Shown: in pieces, positions 369 through 21,836 of the stretch
Numbering within the stretch: the first letter of the stretch is position 1
Layout of the letters: the number at the start of each line of letters is the position of its first letter
Source: Mytilus edulis
Lineage: Eukaryota
Direction: 5' to 3'
Length of the DNA stretch: 64,000 bases
NCBI RefSeq assembly: GCF_963676685.1
Contig: NC_092348.1
Coordinates: 5,022,001-5,086,000 of the forward strand
Position numbers and translations under genes: made by a program
Notes under the pieces: generated by a model
What the model saw: only the letters and a program-made list of their open reading frames with translations
Told to the model about the DNA's origin: nothing
Database searches by the model: none

Positions 369-466
369 ATTTTCAGCCCCCTAGCACCTGTTCTCTCAGA
401 TCATTATAAATACACGTCTGGAATTGTTCAGGGTATCAGAATAAGAAATACAATCCAATCGTCAAC

Positions 467-1282
467 ATGCAGGAAGAGCACAGACAGTCCTTAAAGAGAA
501 ATTACGTGCAATTGGTAAAAGAAACACCAACAGATCTTGTTGTTGATCATTTGTACCAGAATGGGATCCTGACAGATGAGATGAGGGAAGAAATTTTACA
601 GAATTCAAACTCTTATTCGAAAACTAGACAACTCATTACAACACTTCAGAGAAGGGGCCCAAGGGCATTTGAATGTTTTTGTACAGCACTGACTGATGAA
701 GGCAAGTCAAGTTTAGTACATCTTTTGAAAGAGTCAAAGATTAAATCAGAAGTATCAAAAGATAGAGCCATGTTACCTATAGGAGGAGATATATTTGTCG
801 TCGTCAATGAATGGCGTGACAAGGTGTTGATTCACATCCGTAAATACGAAAAGAATTCAGCAGACGTGTATGTTCCTACAAAAAAGGGAATCGCACTGGA
901 TCTGAACCAATGGCAGCTATTAGAAATGTATGTTAACGAAATCGAAGAGGCTATAAGTCAGATGATTGATGACGTTACAGGGGTTCCTGAAATGACTTTT
1001 CATCTTGGTAGAGGTGTGTACGTTTCTGTTAACAAAACGTACCCAACAGTTGATGTCAGACAACGCTGGAAGATACCTGAAACCAATCAGATAGTTTCAA
1101 CAAAGAAGGGCATTTCTCTCACATATGACAAGTGGGAAGCGTTGAAAGGGACATTTCCTGACGTCAGAGAGACTGTTCCTGAAATAGAAACTACGACCCC
1201 TTGTATTTTATCAGAAGACCATCAAAACCAAGAAGGGATGCTCATGTGTTCAAACTGTAACCCATTTGCCGAACCTTTATGA
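467..1282 (+). CDS. CARD - PC4 - PC4 fusion protein with C-terminal Cys/His cluster
   Basis: aa 1-88 is a CARD-type death fold (LKRNYVQLV...VVDHLYQNGILT...LITTLQRRGPRAFECFCTAL). Two PC4/Sub1-like repeats follow (VVVNEWRDKVLIHIRKY..PTKKGIAL..QW; VSVN..TVDVRQRW..TKKGISL..KW). The C-terminus carries C..H..CxxC. TATA-like TATAAAT at ~405. Confidence 0.85.
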   Translation: MQEEHRQSLKRNYVQLVKETPTDLVVDHLYQNGILTDEMREEILQNSNSYSKTRQLITTLQRRGPRAFECFCTALTDEGKSSLVHLLKESKIKSEVSKDRAMLPIGGDIFVVVNEWRDKVLIHIRKYEKNSADVYVPTKKGIALDLNQWQLLEMYVNEIEEAISQMIDDVTGVPEMTFHLGRGVYVSVNKTYPTVDVRQRWKIPETNQIVSTKKGISLTYDKWEALKGTFPDVRETVPEIETTTPCILSEDHQNQEGMLMCSNCNPFAEPL

Positions 1283-1352: not shown

Positions 1353-1862
1353 ATGAATTCAAGAGAAATATCGTTCGAGTCTGTAGAACGAAACGAACCT
1401 TTAATGCTTAATATGGGGCGTAAAATGCCTTCTCAGTTAAGTTTGGCGTCCAACATTTCCTCCATGTATGAAAAATATGCAATGCATTTAGACGTGATTA
1501 AATGGACTGGTGTCGTTGTACTTGTTGCTCTGATGTCATCAAGTTTAGCTGTAACCAGTGAAATGTCCCGGAGAGTATCCAATAACCAGACAGACTGTAA
1601 AAGGATTTCGATAGATCATACGAACAGAAATATGATGATGATAAACAATAGGACATGTAGATATTTTGAACAGTTTGATCTCCCGGGAAACTATAAAGTC
1701 ACTGTATGTTCAATCAGAAAACAAGTCTGGGTGGATGTTAAACATTTTAAAAAGTGCGGTATACAGTTCAACCCTAAACAATGGAAATATTGGCAGAGAT
1801 TGAAACCAAATATAAACAGTGCTATGAAAAGAGCTGGTGAAGAACTAAGACAAAAGACATGA
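1353..1862 (+). CDS. Predicted single-pass membrane protein with C-terminal PC4-like domain
   Basis: Hydrophobic segment VIKWTGVVVLVALMSSSLAV, then FDLPGNYKVTVC..KQVWVDVKHF..GIQFNPKQW resembling PC4. TATAAAA at ~1292, AATAAA at ~1906. Confidence 0.6.
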   Translation: MNSREISFESVERNEPLMLNMGRKMPSQLSLASNISSMYEKYAMHLDVIKWTGVVVLVALMSSSLAVTSEMSRRVSNNQTDCKRISIDHTNRNMMMINNRTCRYFEQFDLPGNYKVTVCSIRKQVWVDVKHFKKCGIQFNPKQWKYWQRLKPNINSAMKRAGEELRQKT

Positions 1863-2090: not shown

Positions 2091-3225
2091 ATGAGTTCGT
2101 TAAACTACGAGGACTATTTGCAAAAAATATGGCATGACCCTAAACATGCTGCTGCCTTTACGGGTTCTGACAAATTATATAACATAGTGAAACAAGAAGG
2201 AAAAATTAAAATAGGAAGGCACAAAATAAAGCAATGGCTACAAGACCAGGACACCTATAGTCTATCACGAAATAATGTACACAAATTTAAAAAAAGTCGA
2301 TATGTTGTGGATACAATAGATAGTCTCTGGGAATGGACTTAGCCCAACTAGATAAATTCCAAACCTTCAACTCGGGAAACAAATTCTTATTATTTGTTAT
2401 TGATTGTTTTTCAAAGTTTCTATGGATACAACCAATTGTGGATAAAACCCACACCAGTGTACTAAATGCCTTGAAAACAATTATGAGTGGAAAAAGGAAG
2501 CCTACCTCCATTCGATCAGACTTAGGAAAAGAATTTAAAAACCAATACGTACGGAAGTATCTTTCGAGCCAGGGGGTAAACACGTATTATTCTCTTAACG
2601 ATACGAAATGTGCAATTGTCGAGAGAAGCATTCGAACTGTTAAGTCGATTTTATTCAGGTATTTCAGACACAACCAAACGTATAAATACGTAAATGTCCT
2701 ACAAGATATGGTCAAGGGGTATAACGCAAGACCGCATCGTACACTTGGTGGTTTCTCACCGGTTGATGTGACTAAACGCAATGCAGATGAAGTTCGTTTA
2801 AGTGCGTATCTTGCCCGAAATCCTAAGAAAAGGGAAAAGAAAGTTATTAAAAAAACAGAGATCAAAAGAAGGAAAAAAGCTTTAGGTATAAAATAAATGA
2901 TCTTGTCCGACTTACATTCAAAAGTCATCCATTTCAACGTGGCTATCTACAGAAATGGACAGAGGAGATATTCAAGATTTCTCGTCGGTATTTTCGACAA
3001 AATCTTAGTCTGTATAAGGTCGTTGACCTTCAAAATGACGAAATAGAAGGGACCTTCCAAGATAGTGAAGTTCAGAAAGTACGGAAGGATGGCGATACCA
3101 TATGGAAAATAGAAAAAGTTGTTAAAAGACGACAAAAAAATGGCGTTAAACAGGTATTGGTTCGTTGGCTTGGCTACCCTAAAAAGTTCGACTCATGGGT
3201 TCCCGCTTTGGACATCCAGAAGTAA
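2091..3225 (+). pseudogene. Polinton retroviral-like (DDE) integrase with C-terminal chromodomain-like region; two frameshifts
   Basis: LWE/MDL, VIDCFSK, IRSDLGKEF and CAIVERSIRT motifs. The third frame reads FRYKINDLVRL...WTEEIFKI...WKIEKVVKRR...LVRWLGYPKKFDSWV, with a stop at 3223-3225. Frameshifts near 2333 and ~2880, the latter in an A-rich tract. Confidence 0.9.
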
Positions 3226-3270: not shown

Positions 3271-3732
3271 ATGAGTATACGTATGGTTCTCAAGTCATCC
3301 GATGGTTCCGATTTGTTTGAAAAGAACATGGCTCACGACTTCACTGTACAATTGGATAGGCAAATAAATCTTGAAGCATACTGGGTAGTGGCATTGACAG
3401 AAATCGATCTCACTTATAAAAGCTCGTCAAAATATATAGACGATGTTTACGTCTATTCAAACATTTGTGAAGAGAGTTTTGTCGGATCTTCTGAGAAACC
3501 AATCCTTCGAAAAATTTACATCAGTAAAGACGCAACGGAGGCACATGTTATTAACAAGAAAAAACACTACAGGTCACATATCATCTTTAACACTCCTTAT
3601 TATGTTCCTGTACGTTTGGGACAATTGAACCAAGTTCACATCTATTTAAAAGACGACAAGGGACAACCGTGTTCAGTTGTCAATTTGGACGCCTGTGTAA
3701 CACTTCACTTAAAGAAGTATTCCTTTCTGTAG
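3271..3732 (+). CDS. Polinton minor capsid protein (penton, single jelly-roll)
   Basis: N-terminus MVLKSS..LF..N...DFTVQL...INL...WVVALTEI and later YVYSNICEES.VG...PILR...YYVPV..VTLHLK, typical of Polinton pentons. Confidence 0.8.
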   Translation: MSIRMVLKSSDGSDLFEKNMAHDFTVQLDRQINLEAYWVVALTEIDLTYKSSSKYIDDVYVYSNICEESFVGSSEKPILRKIYISKDATEAHVINKKKHYRSHIIFNTPYYVPVRLGQLNQVHIYLKDDKGQPCSVVNLDACVTLHLKKYSFL

Positions 3733-3734
3733 AG

Positions 3735-4217
3735 ATGTCTAAATCTCCTTACATCAGTGATGCATTGGTATGGCAAGAGACCATGAATCAAGCCAAACAT
3801 TTAAAAAAAAACCACAATAATCAATTAGGAAAGGGTTTTCCTAGACGTTACAGCAGACATCGATTTGTCATTCTGAAGAAAAACTTACCTAAAATTGAAA
3901 CCAAGGTGGAGCAAATAGCCCCAACAGTGGCAATCGAAGAACGTGCTGCTTCAGAACTGAAACAACAGAAGAACGACAAAGACCCTCACGTCCTACAGGG
4001 AAAAAAGGCTAAATCTGACGGTATAAAAGGCAGGAAATCAAAACCAAAAAACAGTAAAGTTGGAAAGCTCAAAGAGGCAACAGGTAAAAAACAGAAAGCT
4101 AAAAACAGTGCACCGAGCAAGAAAAAACGGGCTACAAGGAATAAACCTCGGAAAATAGATTTCGAAACTGAACCTTCCATTTTTAATAGAGGAGCAGCAA
4201 AGAAATGGCGTATTTAA
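3735..4217 (+). CDS. Lys/Arg-rich putative virion core / DNA-condensing protein
   Basis: ATG at 3735 just after the penton stop; strongly basic C-terminal half; QLGKG candidate protease site; located between the penton and capsid genes. Confidence 0.6.
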   Translation: MSKSPYISDALVWQETMNQAKHLKKNHNNQLGKGFPRRYSRHRFVILKKNLPKIETKVEQIAPTVAIEERAASELKQQKNDKDPHVLQGKKAKSDGIKGRKSKPKNSKVGKLKEATGKKQKAKNSAPSKKKRATRNKPRKIDFETEPSIFNRGAAKKWRI

Positions 4218-5524
4218 ACGACGAAAATAAAGACATTAGCATTCCGATGGAGTTGGATTTGTTTGAAGAACCAAAAAATCAAGTAGCTATTGATCGGATA
4301 TTTTTTTCGGAAACTAGGCCAATGTCAAACTTTACTTCGCCAGATGTATCTACAGTAGATTTTTTCGTTTCTGGACAAGGTCCCGAATACATGGATTTAA
4401 GACGGAGTAGATTATATGTTCGTGCAAAACTTGTCAAGGCCGATGGAACGGCACTTGACGATACCGATACGTCGAGTATTGTAAATTTGCCTCTTCAAGC
4501 TATGTGGACACAAATGGATGTGTATATGAACAATAAACTAGTGTCTTTAAATACGTCAAACTACCCATGGAAAGCCTATATTAACACTATTCTTACCAGT
4601 GGGACCGATGAACAGAAATCACAACTTCAGTCACAATTGTTCATGAAAGATTCCGGTGATTTAGCGAATACGGATGGAAAAAACGGAGCTAACACTGGAT
4701 TGATTCTTCGTCGAGATTTTATCAAGAACAGTAGAGAATTTGAAATGGAGGGACCGCTGTTTGAAGACATATTTTCACTGGATCGCCATTTAATACAAGG
4801 CGTCGATTTGTATATAAAACTTTACCGTAGTAGCGACCAGTTTTTTGTCATTTCGGGTGAAGACGCCCCCGCCTACAAGTTACAGTTGTTAGATTGTGTT
4901 TATAAGGCATGCAAAATTAAAGTCGATCCTGGCATTATTGTTAACCATATGAAACAGATAGAAACCAAACCAGTCCGTTACTATTTTCAAAGGACAGAAG
5001 TGAAACGAAACACTATCAATAAAGACTCAAGGGAGTTTATTTGGGACAATATGTTCAACATCCGCCCAAGTACTCTGGTCTTAGGGTTGATCTCACAAGA
5101 AAGCGGAAATGGAACGTACGATACTAACCCTTTCTGTTTCAACCATTACAATGCAACTGATGTAGGACTGTACGTAAACGGAGAGAGCGTTCCAGCGAGA
5201 CCGTTAAAACTTGACTTTGGGGATAATAGACAGTATGCAACGGCATACGCTAATCTATTTGAGGTCTGTGAAAAAATGAATAGAGACGCAGGACTCACCA
5301 TTACTAGAGAAGACTATGGAAAAGGGTACACCTTGTATGCTTTTCCATTGGACCCGAAAGGACTTGGAGATGACTATATAAACTTGGTGAAGCATGGGAA
5401 CGTGAGAGCTGAAATAAAATTCAAGACGGGACTACCCTCTGCTGTCACGTGCATAGCGTTTGGAGTATTCGATTCATTTCTAGAGATAGACCATTCCCGA
5501 AACGTTCGCTATATACAGTCATGA
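4205..5524 (+). CDS. Polinton major capsid protein (double jelly-roll)
   Basis: 439 aa with ELDLF..P..Q, YMDL..SRLYV, NYPWKAYI.T.L, NPFCFNHYN and GYTLYAF.L motifs characteristic of Polinton MCP. Confidence 0.92.
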   Translation: MAYLNDENKDISIPMELDLFEEPKNQVAIDRIFFSETRPMSNFTSPDVSTVDFFVSGQGPEYMDLRRSRLYVRAKLVKADGTALDDTDTSSIVNLPLQAMWTQMDVYMNNKLVSLNTSNYPWKAYINTILTSGTDEQKSQLQSQLFMKDSGDLANTDGKNGANTGLILRRDFIKNSREFEMEGPLFEDIFSLDRHLIQGVDLYIKLYRSSDQFFVISGEDAPAYKLQLLDCVYKACKIKVDPGIIVNHMKQIETKPVRYYFQRTEVKRNTINKDSREFIWDNMFNIRPSTLVLGLISQESGNGTYDTNPFCFNHYNATDVGLYVNGESVPARPLKLDFGDNRQYATAYANLFEVCEKMNRDAGLTITREDYGKGYTLYAFPLDPKGLGDDYINLVKHGNVRAEIKFKTGLPSAVTCIAFGVFDSFLEIDHSRNVRYIQS

Positions 5525-5991
5525 ATGGGAACGAACTAGAATGTGCTATCCGATCCAATTCGTGTATACAAATGCAGGTGAAAGGAGTATTTGCAAGGAA
5601 CAATTTACCAACAGGAAAAATACATTACCCCAGTGCCTACATCGTCAACAACCATACGAGTGATCTGCCAGGGGAACATTGGATGGCAATTGTGTTAGAA
5701 AGTAAATCACATGGGGTGTTTTTCGACAGTTTTGGAAAACCACCGGAATTCTATGGAGAAGAATTAAAACATTTTCTGAACTGTTACGTGAAACAATACG
5801 AGTGTTTTAATGTACAAGTGCAACCAAAGTCGTCTTCTCATTGTGGATTGTTTGTGTTAACTTTTCTCATGTTGAATCTATGTTTTAAATATTCATTAAA
5901 TAGTATTGTCAATATTTTCGATTCAAACGTTTATGCTAACGACCATTTTGTATTTAATTTTGTCAACACTTATTATAGTTTGTGTCAATAA
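5521..5991 (+). CDS. Adenain-like cysteine maturation protease
   Basis: PGEHW (catalytic His), FFDSFG (Asp) and QVQ..SSHCG (Gln/Cys). ATG at 5521 overlaps the capsid stop (ATGA). Confidence 0.92.
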   Translation: MNGNELECAIRSNSCIQMQVKGVFARNNLPTGKIHYPSAYIVNNHTSDLPGEHWMAIVLESKSHGVFFDSFGKPPEFYGEELKHFLNCYVKQYECFNVQVQPKSSSHCGLFVLTFLMLNLCFKYSLNSIVNIFDSNVYANDHFVFNFVNTYYSLCQ

Positions 5992-6035: not shown

Positions 6036-6737
6036 AATGCTCTCATACCTTATCCGGACGTCAAGATGACAACTTCTCGCGATATTTTACCTTTTCAAAG
6101 TCCTTGCACTTTCATGATATCGGGAGCGACTCAAAGTGGAAAGACTACATTTGTAATGAAATTACTAAGGCAAGCATCTGTCATGTTTAATACCCCACCG
6201 GTTCAAATAGTTTACTGTTATACGGAGTTTCAACCCATTTTTGACCAAGCTCAACAAACTATACCCAATTTGTTACTGTACGAGGGCTTCCCCACAAGAA
6301 GTGACATTATAGAATGGACCAACCCGGACAAGCACACAGTCCTTGTACTGGATGACATGATGAGATTGATCAGTAAGAGTGACGAGGCTTTACACCTGTC
6401 AACCGCGCTATCACATCACAGGAACTGTTCGGTAATTTTCATAACCCAAAATCTGTTTGAAAAAGGAACACATTTCAGATCGATAAGTTTGAATACCCAT
6501 ATTTTTGTACTTATGGCCAATAACAGAGATAAAAAACAACTTCTCGCCTTTGCAAGTCAGGCATTTCCCGGTGAGACGAAATATTTCAAAGAGGCCTATG
6601 ATAAAGCCATCAGTTATGTTTCAGTTGGGGGATATCTGGTATGCGACTTATCCCCTTATACGGATAAAAAGTACCGCTTGCGTACTTCGATATTTCCAAC
6701 TGATGACGTCACCATTGTATATGCCCCAAAGAAATAA
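6036..6737 (+). CDS. A32-like genome packaging ATPase
   Basis: Walker A GATQSGKT, Walker B LVLDD, and HHRNCSVIFITQN..RSISLNTH. The start codon is uncertain (6030-6066). Confidence 0.92.
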   Translation, partial: NALIPYPDVKMTTSRDILPFQSPCTFMISGATQSGKTTFVMKLLRQASVMFNTPPVQIVYCYTEFQPIFDQAQQTIPNLLLYEGFPTRSDIIEWTNPDKHTVLVLDDMMRLISKSDEALHLSTALSHHRNCSVIFITQNLFEKGTHFRSISLNTHIFVLMANNRDKKQLLAFASQAFPGETKYFKEAYDKAISYVSVGGYLVCDLSPYTDKKYRLRTSIFPTDDVTIVYAPKK

Positions 6738-18189: not shown

Positions 18190-19563
18190 ATGCAGAAATT
18201 TGGGGCTTTTTTAATCCTTTCAAAAAAAAATTAAATTCTCAGACTTCTACAGTTGATCAAGCTTATCCTAAACTTTTTTCAGATAGATTACATATGAAAT
18301 TTTGTAAATTATTACTAGGTTTGGGGAAAAGAGCAACAAACCTTGCCACTCTTTCAGAACTTGGGAGATTTCCTTTACATTTTGATATCACCAAATCTAT
18401 GATCAGATACTGGCACCGGCTTGAGAATTTGGGTTCATCCTTTCCCTTACTAAAAGATGCATATTTAGAGTCAAAGCTATTATTTGAATCAAAAATTCCC
18501 TCTTGGTATGGATCTTTAAACTATTTGCAAAAAAAAATTAATGGGGTTGACAGTCTAACCTTTGCAAGCAACTTTAGATTCAAAATTTTAATTAAAAAGT
18601 TTTTGTATGAGCACTATGAAATACAATGGAGAAACCAAATGCACAATTGTGCTGATGGGAAGCTTTGTAGCTATAGCACTTTTAAGACTCATTTTGGTCT
18701 TGAAAGATACCTTACTATATTACAATCACCTGAGCAGAGGAGAAATTTCACTCGATTGCGTATTTCTTCTCACAGACTAAGAATTGAACAAGGTCGCTAT
18801 CAGGGTACTCTCCGACAAGACAGAATATGTCTCAGGTGCACCTCAAATGAAGTTGATGATGAAAAACATTTTTTATTCTCATGTACATCATCACAAGATA
18901 AGAGAAATTATTTGAATTCCACTATTGACTTACTATGCCCAAACTTTAAGCATTTGATTCCTAGTCAAAAACTGATATGGCTTCTTAATGTAGAGAATCT
19001 TGATATTTTGATATCTGTCTGTGAGTTAATTGATGAAGATAAAATATAACTTTAAAGATAAATATTTAATCAGGCTCTCTGCACTAGGCACAAGGTTGGC
19101 ATGGTGGGGTACAGGACACATCGTACAAGTTCTATTACCTTCTTGTTTGCGATATTATTATTTTTTTTATTAAACTGGTAATATTTTATCTTTTTTGTAA
19201 TTTGTGCACTTTGGCATGTCAATTAGCATTGTCCCTTGGTGCCTCTTGCAGTTGTGTCACTTTAAATAGTACTGACTCCTCTGCACCAGGCACGAGGATG
19301 ACATACCATTTATGTGCAACTTCTTACAATATCTTACCATATCATTAATGTCCCGAAACACATTTTAATATGCACCCACCATGCCATATAGCACCGTCCC
19401 TAGGTGCCTCTTGCAGTTCAGCTAGATATATTTAGCCTACTCACAGTATTCTTTTTTTGTTACTTTCCAGAGGTGTGCCTGAGACAAAGGTTTTATATAT
19501 ATACTAATATGTGATAACTGTTGTTTCTTATTTGTGTTTGTAACTTGTGTTGTTTATTATATT
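18190..19563 (+). mobile_element. 3' part of a non-LTR retrotransposon (ORF2 C-terminus 18294-19049 plus 3' UTR; tail probably resumes at 24263-24357)
   Basis: KFCK.LLG...TN.A...ELGRFPL, RLRISSHRLRIE.GRY and RIC..C..EVDDEKHFLFSC are typical of the post-RT region of LINE ORF2. An AATAAA plus (CTT)n tail lies right after the Gypsy insertion. Confidence 0.8.
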
Positions 19564-19614
19564 TGTTATATTTCTTATTTTGCAAATTCGGAATTTCAAA
19601 ATATATCTATAACA

Positions 19615-21836
19615 TCTAGTACGACATTTGGGTTTGTTTTAGGTCAATTAGATAGTCAAGGTCGAGAGCATGTCATAGCTTATGGAGGTAGAAGTTTGTC
19701 TAGGGCAGAACGAATCTGGTGCACCACAGAACAAGAATGTTTAGCTGTTCTAGAGGGTGTCAAACATTTTCGTGCTTATTTGACTCGTCGATTCAGAATT
19801 TTCACAGATCACAAGGCTCTTAAATATTTGATGGATCAAAAGGTTGCAGTCGGTAAATTAGGTCGTTGGGCTCTTAAATTACAAGACTTCGACTTTGATA
19901 TCGTTCACAAACCAGGTAAAAACAATGAGGTGGCAGATGCTCTCAGCAGACGCACATATACTGAAGTGGCTGATGAAAATAAAACATCGCCAGTGAAAGT
20001 GTTTGTTTCAAATGCAAATGAAAATGAGTTTCTGTCAGATACAATTGAGGTTAATGCTTGTGAGACAGATCTAGAGGTAGACAATAAAGGAGACGAGGAC
20101 TTGGAGAGTGTAGAGCTCGAATTATTTTATGGAGACTATACACTTCTTGCTCCTCTAGATCCTGAAGTCGTCAATAGTGAGTTATTGGACATTCCTGCTG
20201 TAAGTCAGTTACAACAAGTTGACCCAGATTTTCAGGATATGTTTAATTACTTGCAAAATGACGTTTTACCTCAAAGTGAAAAGGTTCGACAAAAAGTTCT
20301 AGCAGAATCTCAAGATTACTCGGTTTGTGATGGTGTTTTGTATAAATGGTTTCAAAAGAGGTTTAAAACGAGTCCAGATGAAAAGTACATTAAACAATTA
20401 TGTCTTCCATTAGCTCTCAGACGTCATGCTTTGCTAGCTTATCATGACTTGAATTATGGTGGTGCACACTTAGGATTGGACAGGGTTTTGGCTGCTTTGA
20501 GACAAAAATATTTTTGGCCAAAAATGCACCAAACAGTCAAAGACCATGTTCTTTCTTGTGACAGGTGTCAACGAATTAAGGTTGACCATACACGCAAAAA
20601 TCCACCTTTAAATCCTTTGCCAGTGGTAGGTCCATTTGATCGATGGCATATGGATTTCTTAAAGCTGAGCAAGACAAACAAAGGTGAAACATACTTGCTC
20701 GTTTTGGTTGATAGTTGTAGTAAGTGGGTTGAAGCATTTGCTATGAAAACACAAGAGGCTTCTGAAGTTGCAAAGGTCTTGTTCAAAGAGGTTTTCTCTA
20801 GATTTGGCGCAGCAAGGTTTTTGGTTAGTGATCGTGGAAAAAGCTTCATGAATAACTTAGTTCTGTCGTTATGTGAGATATTTGATGTTACAAGATATCA
20901 TACTAGCTCGTACCATCCTCAAACAAATGGGTTAGTAGAAAGGTGCAACTCAACTCTGATAAAGTCTTTCAGAGCATACTGTGATAAGGCTCAAAATAAT
21001 TGGCCCGATAAATTACCCGGAATTTTAATGGCTTTACGCAATTCTCCTTCAACTCAATCAACTGAGTTTTCTCCCTTTCATTTGCTGTTTGGTAGAGAAA
21101 TGAATCTACCTTTTGACACTTCTGTTACACCTAAACAGAATTTGTCAGCAGATGCCAAGCTTCAAATGGAAGAAGTTCTATCAAATCTAAAGATCACACA
21201 AGATCTTGCCACTAAAAATATGTTAGAAAAACAGTTAAAATCTAAAGAGCGATACGACCGAAATTCAAAAATTCCACAATTTAAAGTAAGGGATTTAGTT
21301 TTACTTCGGCAACATGTGGTTCCCGTCGGTCGCTCACCGAAATTGTAGATAAGTACAAAGGGCCTTATTACATAACTGAGTTGGGACCAAATTACACATA
21401 CAAATTGAGAATGTGCAGCACTAATAAAGAGGTAAAATCGATGATCAATGCAAAAGAAATATTCCTTTACAAGGATCCAAGAGATCATCAGCTGCAACCC
21501 AATGAGGTGGTACAAAATGTAGCTTATGATACTGATAGGGTAGATCAGCATGATCAAGGTGATGAGAATGTGCCTCAAGCACAAAATAGGGAGAATGAAA
21601 CCACTGATGGTAATGATGATCAGATAGAAGATCATCAGTTTTATAAAGCGGAAAAACTTTTGAAGTTAAAGCGCTTACAAGGTAGACGACATTTCCTTGT
21701 AAAATGGGCGGACGGCTCAAAACCCACATGGGAACCAGAGGAATATGTTTCAGAACATTTAATCAGAGTATATTTTAGCACACATACAAATACAGGGACT
21801 AAACGAAAGAGAAAAACATGCATACGGCAAAACTAG
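19615..21836 (+). pseudogene. Gypsy pol fragment: RNase H, integrase, chromodomain; frameshift at ~21345
   Basis: IAYGGRSL, FTDHKAL, WHMDF, LVSDRG and YHPQTNGLVER. After the frameshift it reads YKGPYYI and FYKAEKLL...FLVKW..PTWEPEEYV. Confidence 0.88.

Follow-up and report, generated by a model that had tools for sequence, protein, structure and literature searches.

Polintons, also called Mavericks, share with the mussel element described here an integrase, a protein-primed PolB, an ATPase, a protease and, with weak or no clear Pfam matches in the mussel element, capsid-like genes, as well as terminal inverted repeats and 6-bp target duplications. The cell-death cargo reported from Polintons so far consists of Bcl2, IAP and gasdermin-like genes (adintoviruses encode Bcl2 and IAP homologs, PMC8502044), whereas the mussel element carries a CARD. 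The label MOSUB comes from Supplementary Fig. S2 of Starrett et al. 2021 (PMC8502044), where it is drawn beside a terminal repeat; the main text of that paper does not mention MOSUB, and no function is tested there. The deposited adintovirus MOSUB proteins (UniProt A0A5H3CIS2 from Branchiostoma, and A0A5H3CT48) are about 200 amino acids long, with no CARD match reported. The mussel protein, like them encoded in a Polinton, matches them by the structure of its PC4 pair, at 15–17% identity.

Viral CARDs without a catalytic domain are likewise known, namely vCARD of ranaviruses and iridoviruses (GIV-CARD) and E10 of equine herpesvirus 2. They are encoded by large vertebrate DNA viruses, have no nucleic-acid-binding domain attached, and are 17–31% identical to the Polinton CARD. 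GIV-CARD, from grouper iridovirus, is an inhibitor of apoptosis that moves into the nucleus (PMC4457926). The vCARD decoys consist of a CARD only, whereas the mussel CARD is fused to MOSUB. In the model, the PC4 repeats of the mussel protein have the fold of human PC4, fungal Sub1 and the phage T5 PC4 homolog, but PC4 forms its homodimer from two single-repeat chains, whereas the mussel protein is asymmetric and carries a CARD as well as a Cys/His tail. Two repeats in a single chain, as in the mussel model, are found in Pur-alpha repeats I–II (10–12% identity).

Both halves of the mussel protein have viral precedents, and the new part, within the literature searched, is the CARD fusion together with the Polinton CARDs: neither was described there, and a term look-up in Polinton papers turned up neither a PC4 gene nor a CARD gene. 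The reading in an earlier note on this DNA was overstated in part, as the PC4 half was already labelled MOSUB and viral CARD decoys were known (PMC4457926).

The CARD-MOSUB gene

The window is a stretch of 64,000 nucleotides of Mytilus edulis DNA (NC_092348.1, positions 5,022,001 to 5,086,000). Its Polinton begins with the CARD-MOSUB gene, which is laid out as follows in window positions.

405..411, + strand: TATA-type box, 62 bases 5′ of the ATG; offset kept in diverged copies, putative function
467..1282, + strand: CARD-MOSUB ORF, 271 amino acids, one open frame, first gene of the element
467..736, + strand: CARD, residues 1–90 (Pfam, Apaf-1 CARD match, RAIDD and caspase-9 sequence matches, dN/dS 0.19)
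755..967, + strand: PC4 repeat 1, about residues 97–167 (TM 0.95 to 1pcf chain, kept contact residues)
989..1186, + strand: PC4 repeat 2, about residues 175–240 (Pfam, alignment, PC4-pair model; mapped onto repeat 1 by eye)
1187..1279, + strand: Cys/His tail (C246, H252, C261, C264), near-invariant; predicted zinc site with putative metal binding

The earlier note had seen an intact 271-residue ORF made of a CARD, two PC4 domains and a Cys/His tail, and this composition is confirmed by the single open frame, Pfam, the model and the alignment. Pfam places the CARD at residues 7–88 (E 9.6e-18) and PC4 over two stretches (E 2.1e-18), and the best PDB sequence matches are RAIDD, PC4 and caspase-9. 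An AlphaFold2 model of the whole protein (17 sequences; mean pLDDT 88, pTM 0.61) displays six helices in residues 3–88, a low-confidence linker at 90–95 and then two beta-sheet-plus-helix repeats. The CARD is predicted to hang on a flexible linker, separate from the unit formed by the PC4 pair.

The motif TATAAAT sits 62 bases ahead of the ATG, and a TATA-type box is found at −63 in the copies of 89%, 82% and 73% identity. The motif occurs 27 times in 16 kb of the plus strand; its conservation at this offset exceeds what chance would give, and the box is a putative promoter element. TATA-type boxes precede all three left-end genes of the element. The claim that the gene has its own TATA box holds for the motif and its position in three diverged copies, while its role as a promoter is putative.

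The host element is a Polinton

The element that hosts CARD-MOSUB is a Polinton/Maverick, named adintovirus in animals. In the window copy it is 16.5 kb long and its 91-bp terminal inverted repeats are identical to each other. Its other features are the following.

L031:9491-9581: left terminal inverted repeat, 510 bases before the window start
1353..1862, + strand: 169-residue ORF with a hydrophobic stretch and its own TATA-type box, without a Pfam match
2091..2896, + strand: retroviral-type integrase (rve, E 1.3e-7)
3271..3732, + strand: probable minor capsid (penton) gene, without a clear Pfam match
4205..5524, + strand: probable major capsid protein (weak double-jelly-roll-like match, E 0.029)
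5521..5991, + strand: adenain-type protease (Peptidase_C5, E 1.4e-4)
6066..6737, + strand: packaging-type ATPase (Pox_A32, E 0.0024; FtsK, E 0.003)
7689..12682, − strand: protein-primed PolB (DNA_pol_B_2, E 6.8e-22 and 1.7e-9)
15908..15998: right-hand terminal inverted repeat of 91 bp

The virus-like setting described in the earlier note is therefore borne out by the integrase, protease, ATPase, PolB and terminal inverted repeats, the double-jelly-roll match being weak. From its position, we take the ORF at 3271..3732 to be the probable minor capsid (penton) gene. The integrase of the window copy is split over two frames near 2330–2340 and ends early. Besides CARD-MOSUB, Pfam revealed no further SSB candidate among 14 ORFs. 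By eye, the C-terminal part of the 169-residue ORF at 1353–1862, which was seen only in family A (the family of the window copy), resembles half a PC4 repeat.

Just right of the element, a near-perfect direct repeat of about 870–890 bases occupies window positions 16426–18177. Further outside it, positions 18294–21836 hold what look by eye like retroelement remains, with an ORF at 18294–19049 and an integrase-like ORF at 19831–21348.

The PC4 pair and the Cys/His tail

When modelled alone (66 sequences), the PC4 pair and the tail form one compact unit (pLDDT 95.9, pTM 0.89). The best match of this model among 48,161 chains is Pur-alpha, which spans both repeats (Z 11.6, rmsd 4.0, 131 aligned residues), whereas the T5 PC4 homolog, MoSub1 and PC4 each align with a single repeat; no fold match in this comparison covers the Cys/His tail. 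The best viral structure match of the PC4 pair is the Branchiostoma adintovirus MOSUB (E 1.8e-7, TM 0.70 by query). Since the compact unit most resembles Pur-alpha repeats I–II, the models support the proposal, already made in the earlier note, that the tandem PC4 is a single-chain pseudo-dimer. In the models, the repeats and the tail pack as one unit.

Repeat 1 superimposes on the 1pcf chain with a TM of 0.95 and is 33–35% identical to PC4, whose ssDNA contacts are F77, W89, R70, R86, R100 and K101 (PMC4350104). We counted the equivalent residues among filled rows of a 143-row alignment, obtained from 163 proteins by removing 20 near-duplicates or fragments. The R86 arginine is kept in both repeats (R125 in 135/140 rows, R198 in 142/143). 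Repeat 1 has equivalents of F77, R86 and K101, with an aromatic residue at 116, the F77 equivalent, in 126/138 rows, and its W89 position is mostly Glu or Asp. Repeat 2, mapped by eye against repeat 1, has equivalents of D84, R86, W89 and R100/K101; the aromatic residue at 201, equivalent to W89, is present in 138/143 rows, and a Tyr or Phe lies near the F77 position, in a shortened hairpin, in 114/141. The two predicted DNA sites are unequal, and that of repeat 1 may be weak because it has no W89 aromatic. Considering these kept contact residues and the PC4, Pur-alpha and phage T5 relatives, MOSUB is likely to bind ssDNA. The four tail residues are kept in nearly all filled rows (C246 in 136/139, H252 in 137/140, C261 in 137/138 and C264 in 138/139), which makes the tail a likely zinc site.

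The CARD: fold, surface and origin

The N-terminus has both a CARD profile match in Pfam and a six-helix bundle in the model, and it superimposes on the Apaf-1 CARD with a VIA-align Z of 17.8 (rmsd 1.0 over 90 residues); the CARD claimed in the earlier note thus folds as a death-domain bundle in the model. Its best PDB sequence matches are RAIDD and caspase-9, and GIV-CARD-type vCARDs and E10 take ranks 2, 5 and 8 among the structure matches. Basic residues occupy only 2/5 positions of the caspase-9 arginine patch (patch from PMC13626777), the equivalents being K10 for R10, Y13 for R13, Q15 for R15, Y50 for R52 and R54 for R56; R54 is retained in 19/26 viral CARDs. As the patch is only partly kept, the surface of the Polinton CARD is not a plain mimic of an initiator caspase.

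CARD trees were built with 69 and 90 rows of about 90 columns, including 64 host CARDs. In these trees, the CARD of CARD-MOSUB groups with stand-alone Polinton CARDs (SH-aLRT 80–87). In the 69-row tree a branch (81) separates the viral CARDs from the other rows, a split absent from the 90-row tree, and the CARDs of two relatives, P0038 and P0055, move away to lie beside a host CARD when further host rows are added. The phylogeny proposed in the earlier note therefore places the CARD among Polinton CARDs but does not identify a host donor among the 64 host CARDs, the best identity being about 34%. When the CARD alone was the query of a “longer” search, only the element's own proteins were recovered.

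The host CARD nearest to the viral one lies in four identical exons with 5015-base spacing (L068–L071, G000:C1:59307058-59322351), the best PDB match of which is the caspase-9 CARD (E 2e-9). A caspase-2 identity for this exon was dropped, as no caspase exon lies nearby among the 142 matches listed.

Purifying selection on the fusion

Rates were computed domain by domain and gene by gene against the copy of 89% identity. dN/dS is 0.19 for the CARD (Fisher p 5e-6); the two PC4 repeats give 0.18 and 0.17 and the Cys/His tail 0.04, and the CARD–PC4 linker is near neutral on 10 codons. The same comparison gives 0.16 for the protease, 0.15 for the ATPase, 0.17 for the polymerase and 0.03 for the probable major capsid protein. 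Every domain of CARD-MOSUB is thus under purifying selection, with the CARD on a par with the protease and the polymerase. Against the 73% copy, the pN/pS of the CARD is 0.21. Stand-alone Polinton CARDs are also under selection (pN/pS 0.46, p 2e-7).

Spread of the fusion and of its CARD

A second mussel Polinton family (family B) has the fusion at 31–33% identity, also placed before the integrase, with CARDs only 17–20% identical to the family-A CARD. The family-B fusions (L034:256-1293, L036:118-1188) start with an extra Cys/His segment, followed by the strongly diverged CARD, and have an acidic tail.

Among 1.84 billion representatives, a profile search returned 148 proteins at E up to 1e-30. 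Both CARD and PC4 (Pfam, E up to 5e-4) were found in 14 of 68 scanned proteins, chiefly the longer of 142 new ones; the named carriers are Magallana angulata, Pinctada imbricata, Saccostrea echinata and Haliotis asinina. The architecture thus recurs in mussels, oysters, a pearl oyster and an abalone, outside the mussel probably also in Polintons; together with the dN/dS of the CARD, this answers the concern that the fusion might be unique to this copy and free of selection. In the ESM Atlas, a mollusc cluster of 61 members shows PC4 in all of them (100%) and CARD in 95% (score 0.87), which we take as a lead only. A metagenome scan was positive for 1 of 54, and on one metagenome contig the fusion is followed by ORFs that look integrase-like and penton-like by eye. 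An IMG/VR scan gave 25 pattern matches and 0 relatives.

A near-complete PC4 pair is present in 163 of 186 proteins examined. Although this sample is biased toward CARD, as the query itself held one, CARD was found by our own profile in 36, while 29 have a long CARD-less N-terminus (among them P0055, with a sub-threshold Pfam CARD) and 98 a short or cut one. A third mussel family, family C, has a 169-residue CARD-less MOSUB and a distant stand-alone CARD gene, which encodes a CARD only and is 44–45% identical to the CARD of CARD-MOSUB. Since most relatives have no CARD and family C encodes one apart from its MOSUB, the domain is an accessory module.

In a 28-row PC4-pair tree, nine CARD-bearing proteins fall in one group (92/88), and P0038 and P0055 stand apart. 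A single clade of CARD-bearing proteins is rejected (AU p 0.006; LG+G4, rows picked after viewing a larger FastTree tree). Among mollusc Polintons, CARDs have thus undergone fusion, splitting or exchange, and they were perhaps captured twice.

Family C has a different polymerase, and its CARD-less MOSUB lies at the opposite end from the CARD and TBP-like genes. The TBP-like proteins (Pfam TBP, E about 3e-22) come right after the stand-alone CARD (L045:4592-5098, L048:7642-8163, L085, L099).

Proposed function and alternatives

The interpretation that we favour, at about an even chance, is that CARD-MOSUB is a replication protein that binds ssDNA and carries a tethered CARD as a decoy against host CARD signalling. 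MOSUB would fold as a single-chain dimer and bind the strands displaced in protein-primed replication, like the SSBs of other systems that replicate in this way (PMC8276246). A CARD without an effector domain, as in viral decoys such as GIV-CARD, would compete for host CARDs and block their signalling, and the fusion would place this decoy on viral DNA during its replication, the site at which damage or immune signals would arise. The likeliest apoptotic target in molluscs would be the CRADD–caspase-2 pair, since APAF-1 is reported lost in molluscs and caspase-9 is deuterostome-specific, CRADD with caspase-2 being the proposed route (PMC11463336); RLR/MAVS-type or NLR-type CARDs are equally candidates. 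Points against this reading are that neither a donor nor a partner was identified among the 64 host CARDs, that the CARDs of families A and B have drifted further apart than one conserved host target would suggest, that the CARD surface only partly keeps the caspase-9 arginine patch, and that repeat 1 has no W89 aromatic.

CARD-MOSUB offers a concrete candidate for the ssDNA-binding replication protein of animal Polintons, joined to a death-domain and kept under selection in mussels, oysters, pearl oysters and abalone. From this selection it can be argued that mollusc Polintons, like viruses, come up against the death or immune signalling of their hosts. Since molluscs are without an apoptosome, the viral CARD is a natural bait for the pathway that switches on their CARD caspases.

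The divergence between the family-A and family-B CARDs would suit self-recognition, and the CARD might instead be a self-assembly module that mediates cooperative polymerisation on DNA or scaffolds a replication compartment, with no host target. In the model, the single-chain PC4 dimer has already spent its own dimer surface; filaments are common among CARDs of solved structure, and the GA-1 and T4 SSBs gain cooperativity from N-terminal domains (PMC8276246). Most MOSUB proteins, however, have no CARD, and stand-alone Polinton CARDs, being under selection, need a role outside the fusion, so we regard self-assembly as unlikely. The TBP-like genes of family C, which lie beside its stand-alone CARD, hint at transcription as another role: MOSUB would be mainly a PC4-like cofactor at the TATA promoters of the element, and the CARD would recruit or block a nuclear signalling factor. 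PC4/Sub1 acts as a transcription cofactor (PMC4350104), TATA-type boxes stand before all three left-end genes, and viral gene expression fell on GIV-CARD knockdown (PMC4457926). Nevertheless, the protein has nothing of PC4 beyond the domain that binds ssDNA, replication of the element runs by strand displacement with no other SSB candidate seen among 14 ORFs, and TBP was not matched in the family-A stretches searched; a transcriptional role seems quite improbable.

Host sensors combine a nucleic-acid-binding domain with a death-fold, a layout that the fusion shares. CARDs clustered on accumulated ssDNA could activate a host caspase or immune adaptor, the outcome being death timed for release or the killing of cells co-infected by a larger virus. 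Bivalves and a gastropod have retained the fusion, which may have two origins, but the characterised viral CARD-only proteins inhibit (PMC4457926), a gene at the element end with its own putative promoter would be early-gene-like, and a stand-alone CARD is unable to sense DNA. We therefore consider activation by such a sensor very doubtful. The timing of cell death, which the earlier note had put forward beside a decoy, found no support and is weakened by the related stand-alone CARD of family C, where MOSUB is CARD-less. A specific form akin to AIM2 or RIG-I, in which MOSUB on displaced ssDNA nucleates CARD filaments, replication triggers the capture or activation of CRADD–caspase-2, and the arrangement arose more than once, likewise has a low probability in our estimate. 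That a host CARD exon landed by chance in one copy, as an artefact or neutral passenger, might be suspected from relatives mislabelled CASP2 or LZTFL1 in public annotations; 8/12 full-length family-A copies with one open frame, relatives with the same domain order down to 31% identity and strong purifying selection rule this out for practical purposes.

Copies in the Mytilus genome and recent movement

A genome search with CARD-MOSUB gave 59 matches (142 of 187 candidates scored), 12 of which span nearly the whole protein at 73–100% identity and are the full-length family-A copies; the eight intact copies among them encode 270–272 residues in a single frame. Three sister copies are near-identical yet lie at different sites, each flanked by a perfect 6-bp target duplication (both ends were read in all three), which shows that family A moved recently. 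The window copy has no perfect duplication (4/6 bases agree). About 1 kb of its left flank is identical to that of two copies on contig C7, and its right flank differs from theirs (window ends, L031:8517-10000, L049, L092). With a shared left flank, another right flank and no perfect duplication, the window copy is a recombinant or an assembly join.

Named relatives with identities that reach 100% are Mytilus proteins. Public Mytilus annotations (P0003, P0004, P0015) call the Polinton gene CASP2 or merge it with LZTFL1, and caution is warranted, as some mussel “CASP2” annotations are Polinton genes. The three sister copies are about 18.5 kb long, and the window copy is without about 1.75 kb (at 13492) and about 0.25 kb (at about 14510) of them.
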